The notes beneath the pieces are model-generated. The model was given only the letters and a program-made list of their open reading frames with translations, made no database searches and was not told where the DNA came from. Made by a program: the position numbers and the translations under genes. DNA of 54,792 nucleotides from Catajapyx aquilonaris (taxonomy: Eukaryota), in contig JYFJ02002569.1 of assembly GCA_000934665.2 (NCBI GenBank), forward strand, positions 1-54,792, given 5' to 3'. Below are positions 13,767 to 52,006 of the stretch, piece after piece (the first letter of the stretch is position 1; the number at the start of each line of letters is the position of its first letter).

Positions 13767-16700
13767 TTATGGGCTTATATTGTCAAGAATCCATGGCAGA
13801 AAGGCTCCGACTCTGGTGTAAATCCCAGGAAGACCTCCTTCGCCACAACGAGTAGGCCCGATAGAAACCACTCCGGCAGCATAAAAGCATATCTTGGTAC
13901 CGTCTTTGGCATCGATGAGCATGAGGGCCCCTCCGGAGTCTCCGCGGCACGAGTCTTGTCCTTTGACTCCTCCTGCACAGAATTGCTCCTTGTCCAACTG
14001 CACCTGGCTCCTGAACACAACTGAACATTGCCGGAGAGGCACGATTGGTACCCTCAGTTTTTGAAGGATGTCACTGCCTGTGGCTGAAATTCAAAGTGAC
14101 ATGATATCAGTCAAGTTCCCATTTTCATATAGTTTTATGCTAATGTGTAACAGTGATTCGTGCATTTTGGTAATGCGGTTATCTATATTATTAATACACG
14201 ACTGTTCCCATAACTCTGCCCGCACCGTATGGTCTACAGCATTGGGAGTGGTGTCAAAATTTTGCTCGCGTTTTCTATTGCAAACCACTTTTGTTTTTTG
14301 GAAACAATGCCGAGGGACTTTGTCAAACGCATAAAAACGACAAAACCACGGATTTCCCATTTCCACCGTTCCGGGCGCCAGCGCCACCTCCTGGGTAGCG
14401 ACTCGCTTACTTCTGCACTTCACCATAGGATGTCACCTCGATGCTGCTGCCTGATTCGCGTCTCTCTCCACTTTCGCACTTTTCCCTAATTTATTGCCTA
14501 ATTTTTGGCAACTTGGTGCCTAGTTAACCCTTATGGTCCGTATATTTTGGAAACAAGCCATACCATTTGATTGCGGCCCTTCATCATAGTGTGTACAACA
14601 CGTTTATTGGAATCACTAATAATATGAATAATACAAATAAATTGAACTTACGAATTGCAAAATCAGTACGGCCCCATCCAGCAACGAAAGCCGTGTATTG
14701 AAGGCGATCCAGGTTCTCCAGGCTGTTCGAAGACAACTCGGCAAATGGCAGGCAAATGGGTTGAATAAAGTCTGCACAAGAAAAAGTGAATGATACATCA
14801 AGAACCTGAATATATTTATGTGTAAAATCTACTTACTGGAAAATGTGACAGGCGCATCCAGTCGGACAAGGGCAATGTCGTTCCTAAATCGGGGTTTGTT
14901 ATATTCCGGATGCGTTACCGTTGATTCCACTCCGAAGTCTTGCGCAGGAGGAGCACAGTACCCACCAAAACAGTCTGTATCACTGCTTATGGTATGCTCT
15001 CCCAATCTCACATGAGTTCTGCAGGTAAATAATTATGTATGAAACTACTGTCAGTACTAATAAGTAAAATTAGCAATTATTGGCCTTAATATGTTAACTC
15101 ACAGGGTTGCACCTGGTGTATTGATGCAATGTGCAGCAGTCATGACGTATCTGTTGTTAATCAAACTGGCTCCACATCGCCAGCTCAGTTGTCCACGAGT
15201 AGCTGTTGAAGAGTGGGATTAATGTAGCCCAATTGTTATAAGGAAGTTCCGTCTCTGCTCATTATGCAAGAATTACTGGTTGTGTACAGTATTGTATATA
15301 AGTATATAACTTACTGGTATATCCCAAAAGTGCTGTCCAAGGGAATTCTCCAATCTTGGAGTCTTCTCCTCCAACCACTTTTTCAAAAAATAATGAGAGT
15401 CCACATTTAGGATAATCAGGAAGTAAGCGACGATTCGGATGAATAACACCAGCAGTGCTAATCGACCGGTCTGTTGATGGCTCACCAGCCGGAATGGTAT
15501 TGATGGGACAGCATACCTGAAAATGATAAAAATGTTAATCTCTTGCGGACTTTTGGAATCGGCTATTCGTGAGCTAGCTAGTGGCTAAAATAATACTAAA
15601 CATCTGCATCGATAGTCATTAGGTTTGTACTATACAGATGAGGATAACACACTGCTCTGGGGTGATTAGTGTCATTTGTAACTTTATGTCTACAGGGGGT
15701 AAGTAATGCATGGTTACACCCTTCAGAATGGTGCTAGGAGTCACCCTATTTGGTACATTATTATCTAGTGAAAACTAGTACTTTTCTAAGCCAATATTAA
15801 TATTTTCACCTCTTAGGTATAACTGAATAGGTAAAGTGACATTCTTGATGAGGTTCTTTATGAGGACTAGTGGTACTGTATAACTTATACAGTCCTCATA
15901 GTTTTTTGTAGTTATTTCTGACCTTAAATACCAGACCTTTTCTCTTGGCCCTGGGCAGAGAAGGGAGTGCAATTCTGTCCGGACATGTCGGGTGAAAAGC
16001 GGAAAATGGCCCGACCCAGCAGAGGTGACGGGGACGGGATTTCAACCCCGGACCTCTCACTTGGCTGGCCAGTAGCATAGCCACTAGACCACCATGCTCC
16101 CTCTAGTCCTCATAAAAATTAGTGACACCCTCATAACACAATGCCATTTGTATAATTTATACAATTATCAGCATAGTAAGTCATGCGGTCAGCACTCAAG
16201 ACAACATCATGCAACCTTGAGTGTGATTACGTCCACAGTAACCAAAGGTACAGAATGATTGCTAAGCAAATAAAAGTGTTACAAGGAATGCCCGAAGAGA
16301 GCATACAATGCTAAGCTGCATATGAAAAGTGATAATAATTATTGAGCCGTCTCATGTTGACTTATGTTCGTTATTTTTGCCGGTTATGGTGGCACATCAA
16401 TGTGTTTACCTTTTATAGCTATCTCAGGGTCAATAACTTGAAAGTGCAGTGTTTTTAAATGCAACATTTTAGAATATATTACGGATAACGAATCTGACAG
16501 CACGGCCATTTTATGAAAAATAAATAGCTAGTAACACATAAAACCGGTTTAGTTACCTTAGGAGTTCTTCCTTCGTATCCACACTGCGATCGTCGTAGAA
16601 ACTGAGTATTTTCAGGGCTTATTGGTTTCTGACTAAAAATTCTAAGCAAAGTCGGACATTTTCGAACATTGATGCAGTTTCCAGGTAGAGAATTTGGAGT

Positions 16701-38151: not shown

Positions 38152-38620
38152 GGTCCTATCTTCTTCTGACTCGGATCTGGACGAAGACAGGTGTGCACAC
38201 CCTTTTGGCAACTCATTCAGGAAGGTACATTTCAGTTCATTGCCCTGGTCATGAACCTACATGTTTTATTCAACCATCTTGTAGTTGGCATCTCGATTTG
38301 GAAATAGCGATACCGGTACGGATATCCTGCCGAAGAAGGAACCCCATAACCGCAGATTATTATGGGCGGTGGTTGTTTCCGGGAAGGGGTTGACGCAAAT
38401 GACCCTGCACTACAATATCTCACCCAGCCACTAAACTTCCCCATACTTAACCACTACCGAAGCACCTGTTGTACCAACCCCCTCCCTATACCCTCCTTAT
38501 ATCACCACTTTCCTTTTTTTTCACCTGTTTGCTGGGGCTGTCCCAAGGCCAAACTGCTGAGTGCCCTGATTCACCTGTTACTCTCCGTCTAGTCTTCTTC
38601 CGAGACACCAGCACCCGAGG

Positions 38621-40429
38621 ATGCTGGCGGCCGTCAAGAAACACGTCATTCTTCTTCTGTTGTTACAAGTCACATTTTCAAGTGCACGTGAGTATATTGG
38701 ATATGGTGTCTTTCAATTGCGCATTTTTTTCCATCTTTGCTTCTTTGTCAGCTTTTTGTGGCTTTCTATGTACTTCGCTAGCTCCCGTCATTTTGTATGC
38801 AGCATATGCGCTGCTATCGTTTTATAGACTCAGCGTATAAAGCTTGGAGGTGTAGGAAGCATCGTGTAGCATCGTTTAATAATTGCACTAATTAACCCAG
38901 GTAGCACAAAAAGTTGGGCCAATATTGGACGAATGTTGGCCCAATATTGGCCTATATAGCCAGTCTGAAGCCAATATTAGGCCGATATTGGCAGCAGATC
39001 TATTGCCATTCGAACTAGATAGTTCAGTGTCAAAAGGCCGTGGTTTCGAACTTGGCAGCAGTATGTTGACCATAAAGTGTAAATCAGATGCAACTTTCTA
39101 AGTGATAAAATAGTTAATTCTGAAATATTCTAGAGCAAAGAAATGTGCCAATGTCCGGTTGTTAAATTGTATACGCCACTTAATTGCCCCTATTATTGCA
39201 TTGTAAAAATGGTATTATTCTCGTTGGACAGGTCAAGTGAGAATATTAGTGAGAGGAGGCGTCCCAGCAACTATCTTCTTGTTCCCCATCTTTACGTCTT
39301 ACCTTATCCTAGGTAAGACACTCTGCTCCAGTTGCTTTCTCTTCTATATGTTTCTTCTCGCTTTCAACAGATTATTCTTGCTGAAAATTCTTCAAGTCTA
39401 AGTCATAACCCGTCAGTGTCAGGGTCATACGTAAGCTTCTCATATATTGTGGAATTCCAAGATGCTCACTTTCCTCTTTTATGGCCTAGATTGGGAAGAA
39501 CGTTTTTTACTGGAACACATTTTGGCTATTCATTTAGTTCCGTTTGTGTGGGTATAAGCCTTGGTATTCCTTCTTAAAGTATAATCATTTTTCCGTCCCG
39601 AAGGTTGTTTTTTTTTCCTTCGATGTCTCCACTTGTTTGGGATTGAATGTCATTTGTACAAAAAGTGGAACAACCTCTGGAAATGCTCTTACGGGGAAGT
39701 AACCAACGGTCATGCAAAGTACTGTGGGTGAAGGCCAGGTTTTATTTGCATTGGCTTTCAAGTTTGGACGGAATAACAATGACCCTGCCACTGTAAATAG
39801 TGAAGGTGTTGGAATTACTTGGTAAATAAACTGCAGTGTGTCTATTTTTTAGCCACGTAGTTCCAAGACGGAAATATTAGTCTGAATAATAATATATTCA
39901 TTATGTAAATATGATGCTTGTCTTCTTGACATCTTTGAGCTCATTTGTATTCAGCTGACAGGTTTTCCAAGGTAGTCATTGAGCGACAGCTTGTAGGTCA
40001 CTTCATGGTTCGTTGTTCTATTCTAATTGCATCGGGGAAAATCAAGGTCGGTTTTACGAGACCTCAAATAAAAATAATAAAAAAAACAACCTGAACTATT
40101 ACTGTACCCACGCCGACAAACCAGTTCATTTAGTGTTGTGAACCTTTCATGGAATCGTTTTTAAGGTCAAGTGATGATCGTGAATCAGTAGACATTCCTT
40201 TGAAGGCAGGAATTATAAGTCAATGTTTGTGAAACTCTCAGAAGAATTCCCATGGGAGATTACTGACATGATAATATTACTTGTTATTCATAATGTGGTG
40301 GACCCAAGACGTAATGAAGGTAACAATCCCATTGAAGTGGCTAAATAGGCTTAATACACAGGTATATTTAAAAGATCAATTTAAAGTGCGATAACTAGAT
40401 AAGTTTCCCTATGTCGATTTACGGCACAC

Positions 40430-40506
<77 letters not shown>

Positions 40507-43500
40507 GCCCATATCCTACTTGAAAAATATGGTGTGGTTGCATTTTAAAACTGTTTGAACTGAAATGCACAAGTAGTTTTATGCGACCAGAGGAGCAGTG
40601 CCACTTTTTTATATCGCTATGCAAGGTTATTAAATGGTGACAAGTTTTCAGGATGGAGTTGGGAACTTGTTCTATTGGGTATTCAATTATTTAATATTGA
40701 CATAATTACCTCATTTTGATAGGAAGTAATTGAATCAGATGGCCCACTTTGATTTTTAAAAACGTCCGAGATATCCCACCTCGATATGGATATTTCCGCT
40801 CTAAGATCCACTATTTTTAAAAAATACCGAGATGTCCCATTTTGATAGCAGGCTTTCACAATCAAAAGAAGCCCATTTGATAGGAAAGCTTTAACGCCCC
40901 ATAAAAATACATGGGCTTAAATTAAGGCAATGTTGGAATCCATCAGAATAAATCAACTTATTACTACTTGTGGTAACAAACACTACCTTTTTGTTGTACA
41001 GTACAGTACATGTAAATGACATACTCTATCTTCACTATCAGCTTAAATGAACGAAAGTGATAATTACCTGAAATACTTTTGTAAAATGTGACGTAATTAT
41101 ATGATGTTGTGGTATTTTTCATAGATTACCTAGTATAGTCTTTGATTTCTACTAGCACTGTACAGCCGTAGGTTTACTAATTATTGTACATAATCACTGA
41201 TCATCAGGTTTTTGTTGGTTATGTCAGCTCCGCATACCTGGTTAGTTTTTGTACTCTTTAAGGCGTTAACATCATTGGTACTATCATTTTTAACATCACT
41301 CGTACGTTATGTCTGGATGTATTTCGATATAAATGGATGACAGAGTACTTATCAGTATCTTAAAAACAGGTCGCTGAATTCCTTGGTATAAGTGATCGGA
41401 ATATTAATATCATAATCTATTGCAATATTTGTCAGAGAGGTTACCTCCGTCACGAGAGCTTGGAGATGACTGCACAGAAGGTTTGCCTTTGGGCCAAGTG
41501 GGCATATGTACACTGGTGGACCGATGCCCATTCTGGAGGCAAGCTTTAGAAGCTGTGAGACCACCTACTTCAAGCACAATTCAGAAGATTCAGAGAGCAA
41601 CTTGTGGTTACCAAGGGACCAAGCCATTCGTGTGCTGTCCAGATGCTGTCAATGGACCTGACACGAATCCGGATCGAGTTTTTCCAACACCAACTGGACC
41701 AAGACCCACTGGACCAAGACCCACTCCTTCACCTATAACTCCAGTTCCCCGACCAGTAACTACAACCACACGCGCTCCTGAGATGCCTTCTGGAGGAGGA
41801 TCATTCGACAATGGAACTCCGACTGGTGACTTCAGCGACCATCCCAACCGACGCTTGTTACCTACTCAATGTGGCTCTGCTCTTAGTGAAGACATACTGA
41901 CCGGCCCAATCGACAATGCCACCTTAGGACGCTTCCCATTCGCCGCCAGGCTTTCTTTTTTTGGTATGTTACTATTGTTCTATTTTCTCATTTTTGCATG
42001 GCAACTATTTCGTAAAACTGTCTCGCGCATCTTGTATTTTCACAATTTTTTGAGTCTGTAGAAACATGTATTATGGATAATATCCTGCTGATTCTTCCTG
42101 TGAACTTATGAAGTACCCTGACACAATAGACTGTGCTACAATACCACGTTTTTGACACGTCAACCCTTGCGTGTATAATGACATTGCCAGTTGGTCGCGT
42201 GAAGAGACGAGTATATGTTCAGATGGTCACGAGAATCGTCGTGGTCTCTTCCACTCAGGATCACAAGAAAAAAATATTGCATGCCACTCTTGAGGGATCG
42301 GCCCAATAACCTCAAATGAGCAATGTGCACGCAATGTAACTACCATTACTATTACGCTGCATTGCGACGCGGTCATGAATATCCCATCAGTGTTAAGACT
42401 TATTGGCAATAGTCATGCAAGCAGTCTTGGACCATTACCGATGAAAACCGTTCTTAGAATCGCTATGGCCAAACTTTAGCAATGACTTACTTTGAGCATT
42501 GCAGCGTAACTAGTAGTTACATTGGAACGATTGAACGAATAATAACAAAAAGCCCTAATTGGGATGAATGACACTACCAACTTGCAAAAATTCCGTAGCA
42601 AATCTGGTGCTAAGGGTGGCGAGTGGCGGTCATTGTACCGTGAAAAAAGCGAAGTCAATTACACATGGCAAGACCTTGGCCTAGGATACGAGCACTAACG
42701 TGCCTGCGAGTGCCCGGTCTGTAAGGTGGAAATTATAAGCTCGTGCAATGAAAGGGTGAAACTGACCTTGGCAGAGATTCTTTTATGAGCATGGAAGACG
42801 GCTACCATGCTCAACTGTGCATGGAAACCACTTAGGTTTGCCTCATTTCAAAACTACTGGTCGTTATGTGCTCATTCATGGAAATTACCGGTCATATTTC
42901 ATCGGTAATCATTTTGAAAGTCTGAAAAGTTACTTCTGTTACAGTCGGAAGGATGAACCAGAACTTGTGTGCAGGAGCTCTCATATCTGCGAGATACATT
43001 GTGACAGCTGCCAGATGTGTATCACGACTACCAAGCAGCCTACGTCTGTGAGTATTATCATTTTTTGATATGTTATAACATATTGTAAAATAATATGTAT
43101 TTTTCATAGAGCATCTGTACGACTGGGAGAGTTCAGCACTCAGTCAGATCCAGATTGTGAAGGAAGTAGATGTGCTCCTCCTGCACAAGATTTCACTGTT
43201 GAAGAAATGATTGTACACCCGCAGTACACCACAGGGCCAATTGGAAATGACATTGCCCTCATTCGGTTGTCCCCTACGCCTCAACTCAGCGGTATTTCCT
43301 CTTTCACTCTTGTCCCCAAAAAAAACACACACACATTCTCTTGGTTCTAGGCTAATATGCAACTTTATTACAGATTTCGTATGGCCAGTGTGCCTTCCAT
43401 TTGACTCACCTGACCCTCAGCCAGGCCTCCAAGGAGTCATGGTTGGATGGAACAGAACCGAATTTCGTATGTATTCTACAACTGACCACGACTTGTACTT

Positions 43501-43826
43501 GAATGACACAATGAATTTATTTTGACACAGAGAGTGGCCAAGGAAGCGTGGTGCAACAGATGTCAGGAGCCATTTTGTTGCCTTCCACCAACTGCAGTTT
43601 AACCAACCCTGCCGATGTGCTTTGCGTATCAGCCGCTGCTACCACCGTCGGAGCTTGTGCTGTCGACTCCGGAGGACCACTGGTGAGCCCAGGGCCACAA
43701 GGCACACCTCGTTTGACTGGGGTAGCTTCGAGTAACCTGAGATTGTGCGCAAGAAGTACCACTCCAGCCCGATTTACATCCGTTCGAGCTCACCTCAGGT
43801 GGATCCTGGATTCCATCCGAGTCTAG
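38621..43826 (+). CDS. Clip-domain serine protease homolog F (His->Arg), 6 exons
   Basis: Exons 38621-38687 (MLAAVKKHVILLLLLQVTFSSA, GTGAGT donor), 41436-41963 (clip, Pro/Thr-rich linker, HPNRRLLPTQCG), ~42944-43047 (TAARC), ~43110-43292 (DIAL), ~43374-43466, ~43530-43826 (CAVDSGGPL). Linking exon 1 to the rest is inferred from its signal peptide and phase-1 compatibility. Confidence 0.87.
38896..39000 (+). mobile_element. Left terminus of a CCCAG-type (EnSpm/CMC-like) element
   Basis: CCCAGGTAGCAC followed by repeated CCAATATTGG palindromes. Confidence 0.55.
40431..40505. repeat. (AAT)~25 microsatellite
   Basis: Perfect trinucleotide run. Confidence 0.97.
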
Positions 43827-46800
43827 TCGACGTCCTCTTCATCTTCATCTTCTGCTGGTTCCTTGCCGCGAGCCAAGTCTAATGCGGCCTTCCAGCGTCT
43901 CGCAGCGTTTCTGTTACGTGCCAGCTGAAAAAAATAATAATAATAATATTGTGCAGATATTTTCAAACTACAAATACAACTATGCTTATAACCTGTCCTT
44001 GTCGTTGAACTAGAGTTGGGCTAACCCAGACCCTATCCATCATAGCCTCTCTTTGAAGCAGCCATTCCCGGCTGCGTATGTTGGCATCATCACGACGTTC
44101 ACGCAGAAGATGTGCCAGCGTCTTCTCTATATCCACTCGTGTTCCTTTCAGACGACGAGCCCACTCTCGACGTCGACGTCGTTCGCTATTCAGCCAGGAT
44201 GGACCCGGGGCAAATACATGAACAGGGGAATAGGTTTTAGGAGATGGGGATCTCGCTGAGCGTTGTGTAACTCTGGTGGCTGACGAGAATGGACGGATCA
44301 CAAATGGCTTCTGTGGTATAGGCGGAGCGCTACGAGATCTAGGTTTGCTTTCCTGTAAACCAAACAGGTTACTTACAAAGGTACCATTGAATAGATGTGT
44401 AGGACATACTGGAAGTGGTGAGTAGTAGGTATCCCCACAGATTCTGTATGAAGCTGGAGGTGAAAGAGATGGAGGGCGAACTGGTATTTTGATGACATTT
44501 CTGCCTCTTTCACTGGTCAGAGGTCGGGTTACCAGAGAGGAGGAAATGTCATGGATGGTGTTGGTTGGGCTTGGACGATTCAGCCTGCTTCTGTTCACGT
44601 TTCCATCTGGCGAAGGAGGAGGCTTTGGGCTGGTGGCAGCTGAAGCAGTTTCACTTTTGGACTGCTCTCGTTTGGCCATTGATGGTGGTAGGCTGGCCGT
44701 CCGGAGCATTTCATCGGCTCTCAGCTGCCGCCTCAACCTTCTGTGCCATAGACATAAAATATTATTGGTCAAAAAAGGGTTAGTCGAATCTGTCCTGGCC
44801 CTACACAACAATTAGCCATTTAGATAAGCCGCCTCTAACTTTCACCTTGCTCAAGTGATGATGGTTGCGTAGCGCCAGGATACCATTGGCCGAGAGCTTT
44901 TATACTGTATGTGAGAGTTAGTTTCTTAGCAACTTTCAATTAAAACGTCTTCCACACCATGCTAATATTGGCTTATTGCGTAGACCTAACAGCTGACCTA
45001 TCCACATTCTTACTTTCTCCCCCACGCCAAGCCACGATTGCGAAGTAGCACATCTATAAAACTCCAATGTCAAAATTGAGCAAGTCATAACTCCAGATCT
45101 ACCGACCATATTCAGTGTTTCTTTTCGGAAATGAAAAGATCGAAAGAAGGGGAGCACTTTTTCCGTGAACTAATTATACGCTCAAATCATAATTAGGATT
45201 CTCCAGTTGTTGTTGAAGTTGTCCGTGTGAGAGAAATGTGACATAAGGAGGCAATTTTTGAAGTTTGTGGGAGTGGACACAACACTATATTAGAATTTTC
45301 TGAATTTTTAATTCACATTTCTAATTTTCGGACTACTTTCCCCTCAATGTCCCTAATCGGGAAATAACAGGGTAAATAAAATAAAATAAAATGAAATGAA
45401 AATTCTGGACTACACTAGATATATTGTGTCTGTGTACTGTACAGTTGTACTGCACATATCTGAAAAATGCTGGTGCTTCTATAATTTATTGTGGGTGTTT
45501 CCCTAAGCTTGCTTGGTATCCATATGACATGGGAGACCTTTGTCCTAAGCTTAATACTGTAGTAGTACAGGGTGCAACTTCCTCTCGTGAGCCAGTGATA
45601 TGAGCAGTGCAAAAGGGTTGCTCTTGTTATTGATACTGCACCAAAATAACATACTTTACATTAATGACATATAATTAGATCCAGAGAATCACAATCAGTT
45701 TTGAGTCATGTATTATTCGTAATACAAGCATATCTCGAAACACTCAATATGAGTAGGACTATGTGGTAAAATAGCAATAAGTTACTTGCAGATTTTGCAA
45801 TGTGCTTAACACGGCTGAACACTTGACAGTGTCATGTGCTAGTGGTCTAAGCAATCATACTGTAGCACACAAGGTGTTCCAACTGAGCAGGTTCATTAGA
45901 ACATGTGGCATTTAATTGCGTTTAATTAGCAGTAATTCTCAATAGTCGTTTCAGTGGCCAGTAGAAAATTAATATTTATCATATTGCAGTATTAGGTTGA
46001 ATGTGGGGCATTCATGTTTACACCACTGCAAAGGTGGTTTCATTTATTGGAAGAGTCGAGACAATAATTAAGGTCATGAGTCATATGGAGAGAAGGTGAG
46101 AATGATAGAGGAAGATGAGTTTAGGGACAGTTGGAATAAATGGGAAAACCCAAGCCTGGAGAGAACCCATTAAAATCATTCCGCATGATGAAATTCTCCT
46201 TCCTATCCAGATCAAACTCGGGATCTCCCAGAAGTTAACCACTACACCACCACGCCAAGGACTAATAAAAGAGCTATTTGCCCATGACCACGCCCAACTG
46301 CAAGGAAAAGTCCGGCCTGGGAAAAAAGGAGATTATCCTAGAGTTTCTCTTGAACTCTGATGCCAGTGGTCCCAAATAGCCATTCCTAAAGATTAAACTC
46401 GAAAATTTATTACGAACATAAATGTTTTGTGACATTAAAAGTAACTATATACATACCGGTAATATCATGAAAAGGAAGTTAACACCAAAGCGGGTAACTT
46501 GGAACACCCTGCACTGATAAATTAATGAATCAGAAGCGTTGTTACAGCCTGCAATATAACCAGATCTGGGTCGATTTTTTTACTGTGAGAACGTGTATCC
46601 TGCCAATGAGGCAATCAAGACCTTCCCCTGCACTACCTAAAAGCAACTCCGATTGAAATCAAGCACATGTAAAAGCAAACCCTCAATTTCTCCAACGGAG
46701 TAGAAAAGCTTGATTCTTGTAGTGATATCATCTAAACTAGGAGTAGGAGTACCGGATTAATCCCAAAGAAGTCGCATTAAAACATTTCCTACCTTTCTCT

Positions 46801-48060
46801 AGACATTTCTATGGACTGTCGAAAACTCACCTCTTTTTCTTCCACATTTCCTTACGACGGTTGTGACAAATGTACCTATACAAACGTCTAGCTACACATC
46901 GAGCTCAGCCAACTGGACAAGTAAAACGTGAGGTGCACTAGTAATTTAATGGTAAAGCCTAAATCGTGGTTACATATTATTTACGAGGGAGGTTTAAAGC
47001 ATGCGCAGCATAGAGCCATCTCATATTTGACCTGTAAATCTCCTCTTCCTTGATCTTCTCCTTTGCTCGAGCACCTAAGACATGCTGAGGTGCAGGTCGG
47101 GCTCGAAAACTCGTCCTACTGCGGGTCCTATCCAATCCCTTGGTTTCTTCCCCACTGAAGTCTTCTTCGTCATCATCTTGACACCCATAATAAGAACACA
47201 TATCTCGAGTACGCTGGCCTTTACCCCAGAAGCTGAATGGTTTCTCGTCTGCCAAAAGTTGCAGCTGACGTCTCTCTCGGATCTTCCTGCTTCGAGCTTC
47301 CTTCTTGGCTACGATTTGGTCATAGCGAGGTAGAGCTGTAGCGAGAGGGACTGGATGGGCCCGGAATGTCTTTGATGTTTCTTCCTGAGGATTTTTTTCT
47401 GACAGCTTCTTCATCAGCTTACTCTTAAGGAGATGCCTCCTGGCCTGTGCTAGGAGTGGATCAAGAATTTCGAGTTCTTTGAACTCGAAATCCGATTCTT
47501 CCCCCTCTCTGGGTTCATTGGGTGGTGGGGTTTTCTCACGTCCTTAAGGGAAGAAATACAATCATAATGTTTTCACTTGATACCGTACCGGTATATCTGC
47601 CTCTATGCACTTGTATTTTTTCAATCGCTATTTTCAATGAAGCGAGTTAGGTCGTTTGATAGCGGATATTATTAAAATTATGGTTAGAGAAACATGCTAT
47701 CCAAATATTGTAATTCTAATGACAGTAATAAGACCTACCCATCATAATGGTACGCCGGATGGAAGGTTTCATGAAGTAATATCGGTGTGGTTTATCGGGC
47801 ATTGTTATCACCCTATCCTTTGGCCGAGGGGTAGATCTTTCAGGCGTGATGGGTGTGACATTCAGCAAGGCCAAGCATCGTCTCGTTTCCTTTCTTAGTT
47901 CCCGTATCTGCTCGCGGAACTCAGCGTCGGACAAATGGCGAACATGCTCGTAATTGGGAGGAATTCGGTGCCACAGGGCGAGGATCGGATCGACCACAAG
48001 TCTAGCACACTTTTCCACATCGTGAAGATGAGGGGAGAGCTTATGGGGCGTAGGCGACAT
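43823..48060 (-). CDS. FAM161: FAM161 family (UPF0564) centriolar/ciliary protein, 5 exons
   Basis: Exons 48060-47739, 47542-47032, 46875-46831, ~44800-43993, 43924-43823, with phases 1, 2, 2, 0 compatible. Motifs FRAHPVPLATALPRYDQI..EKPFSF, FRARPAP..KEEEIYR and RADEML..ASLP match FAM161A/B. Confidence 0.8.
46120..46256 (-). mobile_element. Degraded tRNA-derived SINE
   Basis: Minus-strand head GGCGTGGTGGTGTAGTGGTTAA...GAGTTTGATC with A-box and B-box-like sequences. Confidence 0.45.
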
Positions 48061-48123
48061 CTTCGACTTTCTGCTTCTGTGCTTGTTTATTTAGGTAACG
48101 CGCTGTTCCGTCTGTTGCCAACG

Positions 48124-48137
48124 GTTGCCATGGTAGC
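48124..48137. promoter_or_regulatory. RFX X-box upstream of FAM161
   Basis: GTTGCCATGGTAGC is close to the canonical GTTGCCATGGCAAC and lies ~65 bp upstream of the FAM161 ATG. A second GTTGCC half-site is immediately adjacent. Confidence 0.65.
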
Positions 48138-48326
48138 TATACTACCTCCACCACTCTCAATAAGCGCCTGTTTTGCATGTGTAAAACTTGTGATTATATT
48201 ACCGCTACTATTTATATTTACGGCATTTTATAGTTGCATGCCAGTGACGTGAAGCTTATTACAATTTATTAGACCGTTTAGCTAGGACAATTCGAACTTT
48301 GAACAGAACCGCGCCATCGATGGACT

Positions 48327-48520
48327 AAAAATGGCGGCACTCCATTGACTTAATCCTTGCTCACAGATTTGAGCAGTAAAATCTTAAAATTACAAATTAA
48401 ACATGATAATACGTGTTAAAATTATGGCTATTGATTAAAATAATTATTTTTGGTAAGACCACTGGTTGGTGTGACATTGGCAACATTGATCCAAAATCCG
48501 AATGCACAAAAATGGCGGCC
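48327..48520 (+). promoter_or_regulatory. YY1/Pho-like AAAATGGCGGC motifs in the bidirectional promoter
   Basis: AAAATGGCGGC at ~48328-48338, and again overlapping the COQ6 ATG at 48509-48519. Confidence 0.4.
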
Positions 48521-49624
48521 ATGTGGAAGTTAGTTTCTGTGTGCTCTCTTGCCGGAAGATTTTTGAAGCCTTCTTGGGTACCGGTGCGACTCCTAACGTC
48601 GTGCAAGGAGGAGCCTGGGCACGACCAGTACGATGTGGTCATCGTGGGAGGAGGTCTTGCCGGAACTGCCCTAGCTTGTGCCATTGGTATTCATTGACAT
48701 ATTTGCACATGTTTTTCTTTGGGTTTACATTTATATATGCAGTAGTTGCACGTCAAGGTGATTGCCTTGCAATGCTGAGTAAAGATCTGCATTCACTCAC
48801 ACACAACCGAACGCCTACTATTTATATTTACATCATTGCATACCAGTGACGGGCACCAACAGGACTGCAGTGGGCATACTAACATTTCTGCTGATAAATT
48901 CTGAAATAAACAGTGTGTTCTTGTGTGTAAATCCCATCATCATTGATGTTCATGCAATGAGAATTCATTGAGATCAAAAAACCATTGGATCTCTGGCTGT
49001 GCAGGAATTATAATGCCTGTTTTGATCAAGGCAAACTCATTCCGTTAGTTTGTTGCTACATATTCTTCAATGTGCATGGGTGTAATACTAAACTATTTAG
49101 AGTGGACTTTTACATGTTTGCTACATGATGCTTGTGACATCATTAAAGGACAATTTTATTCTCCAGGGCAATCACCCGTGCTGTCACATCACGGTGTGCT
49201 TCTACTTGAAAGCAGTCGAGCACCTCCTCCCGGTCCTTGGGACCCCTCAACGCCATATAGCAACCGTGTCTTGTCAATCAACCCAGGGTCAGCTTCATTC
49301 CTGGACCAACTAGGTGTATGGTCTGATGTTGTATCCATGCGTGCCCAACCCGTCAAGCGCCTGCAGGTGTGGGAAACAACTTCTGATTCCCACATAACCT
49401 TTGAAAGAGACTCAAAGATGGAAGGAGATGTAGCTTATGTAGTGGAGAATGATGTTCTCATGAGGGCACTGTGGAGTTGTTTGGACAAATTGGATACAGG
49501 CAATGTGCAGTTAATGAGGGGAGCTAAAGTGGTAAAATTGGAGATGCCAGATAAGATGAAAGATATGGAACAATCTGCAACTATTCTCTTGGCTGATGGA
49601 ACCCAAGTTCATGCCAATCTGGTG
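48512..49624 (+). CDS. COQ6: Ubiquinone biosynthesis monooxygenase COQ6, exons 1-2; gene continues past the window
   Basis: Exon 1, 48512-48686: mitochondrial-like leader plus YDVVIVGGGLAGTALACAIG (GxGxxG FAD-binding motif). Exon 2, 49167-49624: YSNRVLSINPGS..QVWE..ITF..VAYVVENDVL..ANLV, ending at a GTAAGT donor. The expected GADG exon was not found inside the window. Confidence 0.92.
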
Positions 49625-50333: not shown

Positions 50334-50489
50334 TATGGCTCATTTGGAAGGGACAAGGAAGCCCATTTGGTCACTATAAGAATATTGCCATTAGTCTAAG
50401 GCTGAATTGATTTTCTTCACCATTTGATACAATTCTCTCTGTAGCTTGTAGACAACCATTGCCACTGCCAAATTTTCACCAATACACTA

Positions 50490-51467
50490 CGAGGGTCGTT
50501 CGGAAATGATCCGCACTCGATTTATTGTCGCGTCATACGTGGCTGCCCGAAGTTGGTATTTATCTCAACAGTGGGGGCCACTGTGCCCTACACTCTGTAA
50601 AAAGTTTGCCGTAATCACCGCATCAGGTCAGCGACAGCGCCACTTGAAAACCGGGAGGGTGTCGACTAGCGTGGACAAGATGGAGGTCGACTAGCGTGGA
50701 CAAGATGGAGGGCGACTATCACGGGCCAACGGTGGACAGCCCGGTTCTTGTGGAAAGAAGGTGGGACAGCAGCGGACATTCACCACCGTCTTGTGGCTGT
50801 GTGTGGAGAAGTGATGGCTCCAGGCCGCAGAACAGTTTACGACTGGATCCAGGCATTCAAGGCAGGCCATGCCACAGTGGAAAAGGGGGTTAGTGCAGGC
50901 AGACCGTCGATTTCTCGGACAGCTGTCATGGTGGGGAAGGTTAACGACTTGATTATGGAAAATCGTCGAATCACATTCGATGAACTGGAACTTGACACTG
51001 GCCTAGGTCGGGCCACCCTGCATGTCATCATTCATGAGGATCTTGCTTTAAAAAAAGTGTGCGCGCATTGAGTTACGCGTGATCTCACCCTGCAGCAGAA
51101 AGAGGTGCGAGTCCAGAGGTGCCGAGAGTTACTGGAAGCTCGAGTTCGGTTACACTGTGTTGTCACACCCACCCTATTCCCTGGACCTGGCACCTTCTGA
51201 CTATGGACTTTTCGACGTGATGAAGGAACCCCTCCGTGGACGAAGATTTGCCTATGCAACTGAGCTCCAAGGAGCTGTCCATGACTGGGTGGTGAGGGCA
51301 CCAAAAGAATGGTTCCGAGAGACGACCATGAAGTTGCCAGGAAGGTGGCAGCGGTGCATCGACCTCGGTGGAGAATACATTGAGGCAGCCCAAGTGTGAT
51401 TCAGCCTCTGCTGGTACATGTAGTGGCCAAAAAAAATCGAGTGCGGATCATTTCCGAACGACCCTCG
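50490..51467 (+). mobile_element. Mariner element, internally deleted and non-autonomous
   Basis: Perfect 34-bp TIRs CGAGGGTCGTTCGGAAATGATCCGCACTCGATTT with TA TSD. Transposase HTH region (IHHRL..TVYDW..F..G..GRP..ENRRIT) has a stop at the WVP-equivalent, then jumps at ~51140 to HPPYSLDLAPSDYGLF..RWQRCIDLGGEYIE. Confidence 0.93.
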
Positions 51468-52006
51468 TAGAATGTGTGAAATGTCAGGAAACACATTTTA
51501 AGCACGTATCGTGAGGTTCAAAATTTGAAATACAACCCTTTCCACCTTCACTTTTAGACCTGAAATAACAACATTCCCCAAATGAAGACCTCGGGGGAAG
51601 AACGATCAAGGTCCACCTCAGGTGAAACTGAGATATTCCAATTTTAAATTTCGAAGGCCCATAAGGTTCTATTGTAAATCCCACTTTTGGGGCCTTCCTT
51701 AGTGACCTGTGATCATTACTCCACAACCACGACCCAACCATCATAATTATTCTACACTAGTGAGACTATGTTCTGAAATGTGTAACTCATTTTTGACTAA
51801 AAGTGGACCTTGATCATTCTTCCCCCAAGGTCTTCAAATACAACTTCTATGCTTATTCATTACCTGTACTGAGGATGGCCTACTTAACTACTCTACCAAG
51901 TTTGAAGAAATTCTGCATGTTGCACTTGGCAAATGTCCTGTGTCAATATGGGAAATTTGCTAAGACTTTTTTAAACTTTTGGATTTGTCATTGGTATTGT
52001 CAGTAA

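Follow-up and report, generated by a model that had tools for sequence, protein, structure and literature searches.

The window analysed here is the whole 54,792-nt stretch of the Catajapyx aquilonaris genome (contig JYFJ02002569.1 of assembly GCA_000934665.2). Two of its genes lie on opposite strands with their 3' ends facing each other, an arrangement that we tested on both gene models: gene F on the plus strand, a member of a clip-domain protease family, and a FAM161 gene on the minus strand. Both frames end in the tetramer CTAG at window positions 43823-43826, which holds one TAG on the plus strand (43824-43826) and another on the minus strand (43825-43823). This is a convergent 4-nt stop-stop overlap, the available tetramers being CTAA, TTAA, CTAG or TTAG. 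A sequence-only reading of the window had placed both stops on this tetramer and left zero intergenic DNA between the genes, and the overlapping stops bear out both statements. The features of the locus are collected in Table 1.

Table 1. Features of the gene F / FAM161 locus (window coordinates).
Feature	Position	Strand	Basis or remark
Gene F coding exon 1	38621..38687	+	X1 contig loose end; signal-peptide-like N-terminus (judged by eye)
Gene F exon 2: clip domain, Pro/Thr-rich linker	41436..41963	+	PF12032, E 1.3e-7; X1 contig
Gene F exon 3: TAARC replacing TAAHC	42945..43047	+	X1 contig
Gene F exon 4: NDIAL, catalytic Asp kept	43110..43291	+	X1 contig
AATAAA, second downstream of FAM161 stop	43369-43364	-	In gene F intron before last; candidate poly(A) signal
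Gene F exon 5	43374..43466	+	X1 contig
AATAAA, first downstream of FAM161 stop	43516..43521	-	In gene F last intron; candidate poly(A) signal
Final coding exon of gene F: VDSGGP with Ser retained; C-terminus WILDSIRV*	43531..43826	+	PF00089; X1 contig
CTAG common to both stop codons	43823..43826	both	Gene F stop (+) and FAM161 stop (-)
FAM161 last coding exon: conserved terminal helix, 13-residue acidic tail	43823..43924	-	Profile alignment; shared intron site
Stretch beyond gene F stop	43827..43920	+	Same RNA-type X1 contig (strandless); most simply gene F 3' UTR, antisense to FAM161 last exon
FAM161 last intron, 68 nt, phase 0, ancestral position	43925..43992	-	Homology; predicted
AATACA	43973..43978	+	Lies in the last intron of FAM161; candidate poly(A) signal (variant) of gene F
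FAM161 coding exon 3, ends SPTLVQRQGQ	43993..44740	-	Profile alignment
FAM161 coding exon 2, core UPF0564 region	47032..47542	-	PF10595, E 2.8e-17
FAM161 coding exon 1	47739..48060	-	Open frame, GT-AG junction; start ATG 48060 assumed; predicted

Gene F has six exons and an open 422-aa frame, in which a clip domain (PF12032) precedes a trypsin-family domain (PF00089); the plus-strand frame 43515-43826 forms the end of the latter (E 8e-8). The catalytic His is changed to Arg (TAARC for TAAHC), the Asp and Ser motifs are kept, and ILTG stands where active paralogs show VVGG or VIGG. Because clip and trypsin-family domains occur together with a replaced catalytic His, we classify the predicted product as a clip-domain serine-protease homolog. 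Non-catalytic clip-domain homologs are a normal class, and clip-domain homologs act in extracellular immune cascades; judged by its family, gene F may have a part in melanization or Toll cascades. No database homolog of the clip exon was found by word-based protein search. The last exon matches other family members and the nearest paralogs at only 30-41%; gene F is therefore old, and a duplication breakpoint is not visible.

Transcript evidence came from X1, the only public run that contains the stretch; it has no recorded kind, consists of contigs and was compared over 40800-48700. One 1,406-nt contig matched in five pieces (41436-41962, 42944-43047, 43110-43290, 43373-43466 and 43531-43920) with zero differences, and its four GT..AG joints are the four downstream introns of gene F. 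Having spliced joints without differences, this contig behaves as RNA. It also carries a 96-nt loose end, the last 30 nt of which map to 38658-38687, an upstream exon ending at 38687; transcription of gene F would start at or before about 38592. At its other end the contig runs across CTAG and 94 nt beyond the gene F stop, followed by 14 more letters that are unplaced in a masked repeat. On this evidence gene F is transcribed and spliced. The contig is unstranded, and its spanning two genes is no proof of a single transcript nor of whose RNA crosses. Some RNA does cross the junction, whose sequence is right unless X1 shares an assembly error. We give next to no credence to an assembly artefact that joined two unrelated ends: the assembly is fragmented (20,583 contigs, 286 Mb), an (AAT)n run lies 100 nt away, and the one run that supports the junction possibly has the same source as the assembly, but the contig matches 43531-43920 without any difference or gap, the junction stretch is single-copy in the assembly, and both genes are family-typical up to the shared bases.

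The FAM161 model comprises four exons with GT-AG introns and an open 560-aa frame from an assumed start ATG. PF10595 (UPF0564) matched it with 63.2 bits against a curated cut-off of 29.9, and in a PF10595 profile search of the genome this was the single match over the cut-off; judged by this profile, it is the genome's only clear FAM161 gene. We also built a profile from HMMER homologs (115, reduced to 81 by a length of 350-900 aa and to 79 with the anchor motif), against which the 560-aa model scored 173.8 bits. FAM161 is the name carried by 7 of 10 homolog clusters looked up. For two FAM161 exons, word-based protein searches returned no database homolog; the full HMMER search gave the 115. 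Intron 2 is common to none of 8 homologous loci showing the EEExY motif and was placed only by the profile and its GT-AG ends. Within 40800-48700 we saw no X1 contigs over exons 1-3, a blank that we do not take as evidence on expression. In the middle of exon 3 (44100-44600, minus strand), about 150 aa rich in Ser, Pro and Arg are strongly diverged and remain unaligned to profile columns 188-330.

We considered whether only one of the two coding ends is real, gene F being a decaying pseudogene or FAM161 non-functional. The missing catalytic His, the ILTG motif and the failure of word searches with the clip exon and two FAM161 exons could be taken that way, but gene F keeps its frame open over six exons and is spliced in RNA, it falls into a class in which lack of catalysis is normal, and FAM161 combines an open frame and a high profile score with being the sole family match over the cut-off in the genome. 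Decay of either gene thus appears very unlikely.

The last FAM161 exon (minus strand, 43924-43823) reads LARNRNAARRWKAALDLARGKEPAEDEDEEDVD* and is preceded by a 68-nt GT..TTTTTTTCAG intron (43992-43925). The spliced end aligned to profile columns 330-415, gapless over the splice junction, whereas the alignment of the intron-retained end stopped at column 395; splicing adds 20 aligned columns (25.3 vs 19.8 bits). The acceptor ranks second of 367 candidate acceptors in 6 kb, and the sole better-scoring one lies 5.2 kb off, with pyrimidines at 4/14 positions vs 11/14 at the FAM161 acceptor. The score of the exon was equalled in 13-14 of 500 shuffles of it. By profile score alone the exon is moderately supported; the stronger evidence is the intron position. 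From metagenome contigs we collected 16 FAM161 loci (29-42% identical), of which 7 hold the motif and are informative. All 7 encode a C-terminal helix after the PxLxE motif. In three of them, two being close in sequence to each other, the same Gln is followed by a GT-AG intron in phase 0, with the same helix in the last exon behind it, and the other four encode the helix unbroken. The predicted intron is 21% GC and belongs to the local size class of 62-82 nt. Homology and a shared intron site and phase therefore support the last exon and its predicted splice, in agreement with the intron and the acceptor at 43924 that the sequence-only reading had proposed.

Were the intron retained, the frame would stop at 43965-43963 after VISIVVFVV. 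If FAM161 mainly retained it, stopping at 43963, or ended elsewhere, the coding sequences would not overlap and some 137 nt would separate their ends. Compared with the usual consensus, the donor CAG|GTTATA differs at intron positions 3, 5 and 6, which could favour retention, as could the second rank of the acceptor, the shuffles that reach the exon score and the four of seven informative loci without an intron there. Against this stand the profile columns gained by splicing, the poor pyrimidine content of the distant rival acceptor, the three loci sharing intron residue and phase together with the unbroken helix in the other four, and the base composition and size of the intron. We consider predominant retention improbable. 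As a separate observation, 7 beetle and wasp FAM161 proteins diverge directly after PTLFERxSQ, the site of the conserved last intron, and are without the usual terminal helix; the C. aquilonaris genome keeps this helix.

The palindromic form of the shared stop is a property of the genetic code, since TAA and TAG codons that follow a C or T also read as a stop in antisense. All 8 stop codons found in the clip-protease family are TAA or TAG, and 4 of these 8 already carry an antisense stop in the same phase; no partner gene is shown for these. For an open antisense frame that enters the end of a family gene, 4 nt is the commonest overlap (4/24 gene-by-phase cases); in the remaining two antisense phases of gene F the overlap would be 32 or 198 nt. 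Because half of the family stops hold the antisense stop in phase, CTAG would need no selection, and by this comparison the palindrome has no added meaning. Its exact 4-nt form is unsurprising once coding ends meet, and the rare part is the meeting itself. The 111 nt around the junction folded at about -24.5 kcal/mol on either strand (a value without shuffle control), and neither fold had a long hairpin centred on CTAG; we therefore gave up the idea that the palindrome has a structural role. We also weighed stop-codon readthrough: the frames past the stops are 33 aa (gene F) and 10 aa (FAM161) long, and nothing hints at their use.

There being no intergenic DNA between the stops, the 3' UTRs of both genes must, on these gene models, overlap the last coding exon of the partner. 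This had been predicted in the sequence-only reading and is upheld by the structure itself, by the RNA-type contig over the junction and by the base composition past the gene F stop (see below). Overlap of the transcripts is forced if both genes are expressed, and one unstranded contig crosses the junction. Candidate poly(A) signals for FAM161 lie in the last two introns of gene F. For gene F, no AATAAA is present on the plus strand from 43827 to 45100, and the nearest candidate is AATACA, which is counted as a variant poly(A) hexamer; such words arise easily in AT-rich introns. The two mRNAs could pair over about 390 nt (43531-43920). On the minus strand, a consensus-like donor (GAG|GTGAGC) occurs at 43793, about 30 nt past the FAM161 stop, and another at 43409; donor words of this type number only 7 on the whole minus strand of the window. 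Use of the donor at 43793 would create an intron in the 3' UTR, by which much of the gene F coding sequence would be left out and the duplex would become smaller.

The gene F transcript very probably runs over the last FAM161 splice acceptor, because the contig extends to 43920, only four bases from this acceptor, and has 14 further letters unplaced, and because the nearest candidate gene F poly(A) signal is inside that intron. One could imagine an immune-to-cilium splice switch in which the antisense transcript of gene F blocks the last splice of FAM161; we regard this as a speculative idea with little chance of being right. If it were true, induction of gene F in ciliated cells could keep the weak-donor intron in the FAM161 mRNA, and the terminal helix and acidic tail would be swapped for the short hydrophobic end given above. 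Splice regulation has been studied at the mammalian TR-alpha2 / Rev-erb-alpha pair. As far as the available part of the source describes it, an antisense mRNA there likewise covers the partner's terminal coding exon and possibly its acceptor, but its long overlap involves an alternative exon, whereas neither an alternative form nor regulation is shown for F/FAM161 (PMC3047299).

It is more plausible, though still unlikely, that the genes form a functional 3' cis-antisense pair kept by selection, acting through endo-siRNAs over the 390 nt of possible pairing or through polymerase interference, so that induction of gene F would lower FAM161 or the reverse. The sequence-only reading had suggested a link of this kind between an immune-family and a ciliary gene, with mutually exclusive expression, transcriptional interference or endo-siRNAs as possible outcomes; our analysis lends these no support. 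The forced overlap of the transcripts and the RNA-type contig across the junction fit such a pair, and the length of the overlap follows if FAM161 uses the AATAAA at 43521. The accessible text of one study describes 360 of the 992 convergent pairs in D. simulans testis as repressed, but only 5 of 694 in D. melanogaster (PMC13228617). No Rfam family reached the gathering threshold in 41000-48500, and an overlap of UTRs would suffice for such regulation without touching stops, so that CTAG adds nothing to it.

Which of the two ends has changed can be judged from the families. Gene F ends 7 residues past the conserved Trp; since 7 of 8 family ends lie at 7-8 residues (one at 22), it appears to end at the normal position of the family and not to be extended. 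After the terminal helix, FAM161 has a tail of 13 aa. Once the 48 of 79 profile rows that lacked the aligned region were dropped, 31 homologs could be compared, none of them a known close relative; all 31 have longer tails, of 18-192 aa with a median of 74. Where the intron is shared, in three loci, the last exon encodes 73, 73 and 102 aa, against 33 here. The tail is acidic up to its final codon, and homolog tails have a median of 30% D+E. The 100 nt past the gene F stop are 56% GC, compared with 30-39% for its five neighbours, as expected of coding sequence on the opposite strand. On these comparisons gene F seems to be without a 3' UTR of its own, and the FAM161 tail looks cut exactly at the gene F stop. 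As this tail is shorter than in all 31 homologs, the spacer and most of the acidic tail have probably been deleted.

We therefore favour, with good but not full confidence, a tolerated tail-to-tail overlap that arose as a by-product of the loss of spacer DNA and is not a regulatory device. Gene F is the sole plus-strand gene of a six-gene clip-protease-family cluster (window 13767-43826); the five minus-strand genes have their stops at 13767, 17619, 24546, 33273 and 36989. As the single inverted member, it would have come to face FAM161. A deletion, in one step or many, or a rearrangement breakpoint would then have taken the intergenic DNA and the gene's own 3' UTR, along with the distal low-complexity acidic tail of FAM161 and its old stop. 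The loss would have halted at the conserved C-terminus of gene F and could go no further because that C-terminus ends there. The FAM161 frame would end at the first antisense stop it met, supplied automatically by the C-TAG of gene F. Both genes would be translated normally, each mRNA taking the last exon of the partner as 3' UTR and probably being polyadenylated at a signal within the AT-rich intron of that partner. The arrangement would persist because the tail of FAM161 is dispensable and its loss neutral, and because gene F and FAM161 probably work in separate cell types (ciliated cells vs immune tissue), an expectation borrowed from flies; duplex formation and interference would be minor because the cells are separate.

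The accessible part of a fly study bears on dispensability: Fam161 mutants without about the last third show normal mating and geotaxis, and the protein is found at sensory-neuron centrioles, localises to the centriole/transition zone and is not detected in testis when expressed from its own promoter (PMC11500687). Against the deletion reading, the window does not count as compact, since the other cluster genes lie kilobases apart, and general compaction fails to account for the site. The FAM161 tail may also be short across the lineage for other reasons. Our searches gave no look-alike windows for the locus and no relatives, and the ancestral state is a presumed one. Apparently, most of the acidic tail can be lost from an arthropod FAM161.

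We regard the overlap as real and as uncommon among animals, and the pair as a new and extreme case of a known tail-to-tail cis-antisense class; the convergent antisense class, the 4-nt geometry and rare coding overlap in arthropods are all known already. In the searched literature, mostly openly readable papers without supplements, no animal nuclear genes described as having a 4-nt stop-stop overlap came up; supplementary lists of FlyBase might affect how rare it appears. According to the parts of the sources available, 3' convergent pairs are the predominant sense-antisense class in the fly (PMC1524920), and such pairs yield Dicer-2-dependent siRNAs (PMC7144943). These pairs also consist of facing protein-coding genes whose 3' ends must overlap (PMC1524920, PMC7144943, PMC13228617). 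Their overlap, as described there, is one of 3' regions up to the poly(A) sites, whereas in F/FAM161 the stops themselves overlap and the UTRs lie on coding exons; fly pairs have been shown to produce siRNAs and to undergo repression, whereas F/FAM161 is known from sequence and one unstranded contig.

The closest geometric likeness is prokaryotic. The accessible text of PMC2174442 gives 4 nt as the modal overlap, lists the same convergent tetramers (CTAA, TTAA, CTAG, TTAG) and attributes the phases of convergent overlaps in E. coli to stop loss. Geometry and tetramer are identical here, and the origin is likely the same, a stop-less frame running to the next stop (PMC2174442). Unlike those overlaps, F/FAM161 is nuclear, spliced and polyadenylated, in a 286-Mb animal genome with kilobase spacing and no operon or terminator context. 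For D. melanogaster, the available text of two papers reports a single annotated opposite-strand coding overlap in FlyBase 2015, CG34148 / P5CDh2 (PMC4528330, PMC4528329). It too consists of two intact arthropod coding sequences overlapping on opposite strands, but the genes are different and F/FAM161 share stop codons only. With just one such case annotated in that fly, coding overlaps on opposite strands may usually be selected against, which speaks against a tolerated overlap. Related arrangements in the sections available to us include mRNA duplexes between closely spaced convergent genes in yeast (PMC6993858) and oppositely oriented nested pairs in mosquitoes, which showed no expression correlation (PMC3689595).

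A second convergent coding overlap of 7 nt was found in the same genome on contig C2947 (1468-1474), between an ATP12-family gene and a membrane-protein gene, the plus frame ending at 1474 and the minus frame at 1468. Like F/FAM161 it has interlocked convergent coding ends; it differs in its length and in joining two housekeeping-type genes. This suggests general tolerance instead of a special device. As a further speculation, the lineage may tolerate convergent coding overlaps far more than Drosophila (two verified here vs one annotated in the fly); it could then serve as a model in which to study how animals cope with mRNAs that must overlap. A search of the genome for an IRAK4/SLC25A26 overlap, in which 30 of 121 mitochondrial-carrier matches were scanned by motif, gave no SAM-carrier motif and no kinase neighbour that was convincing. 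Further genes lie close by within 4 kb on contig C2947.

As it stands, F/FAM161 cleanly illustrates that the nuclear genome of an animal can carry a stop-codon overlap of bacterial style; the overlap would matter more if it were conserved or regulatory, or if a genome-wide count confirmed a lineage-wide excess. It is also a warning for annotation, as pairs like this will come out merged or truncated from gene finders and unstranded RNA-seq, and a dsRNA or probe designed on either 3' end will hit both genes.

Several observations concern the surroundings of the pair. In the clip-protease cluster, genes A, C and D keep GDSGG-type and TAAHC motifs, and genes B (DSGSG) and E (IDPGAAL) look non-catalytic. 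Gene E (minus strand, ATG near 38152) and gene F (ATG 38621) stand head to head at a distance of about 470 nt and may share a promoter. Open frames of considerable length between 500 and 8700 are of probable transposon origin; 6245-7210 matches Transposase_21 (PF02992), and the others gave no Pfam match. At its 5' end, FAM161 is head to head, over about 450 nt (window 48060-48690), with a gene whose first exon carries a GxGxxG FAD-binding motif and which looks like COQ6, with no Pfam match at E 0.01. An X1 contig covers this first exon (48523-48687), and one of its introns holds what looks, by eye, like a mariner-like transposase remnant with inverted ends (50470-51470).
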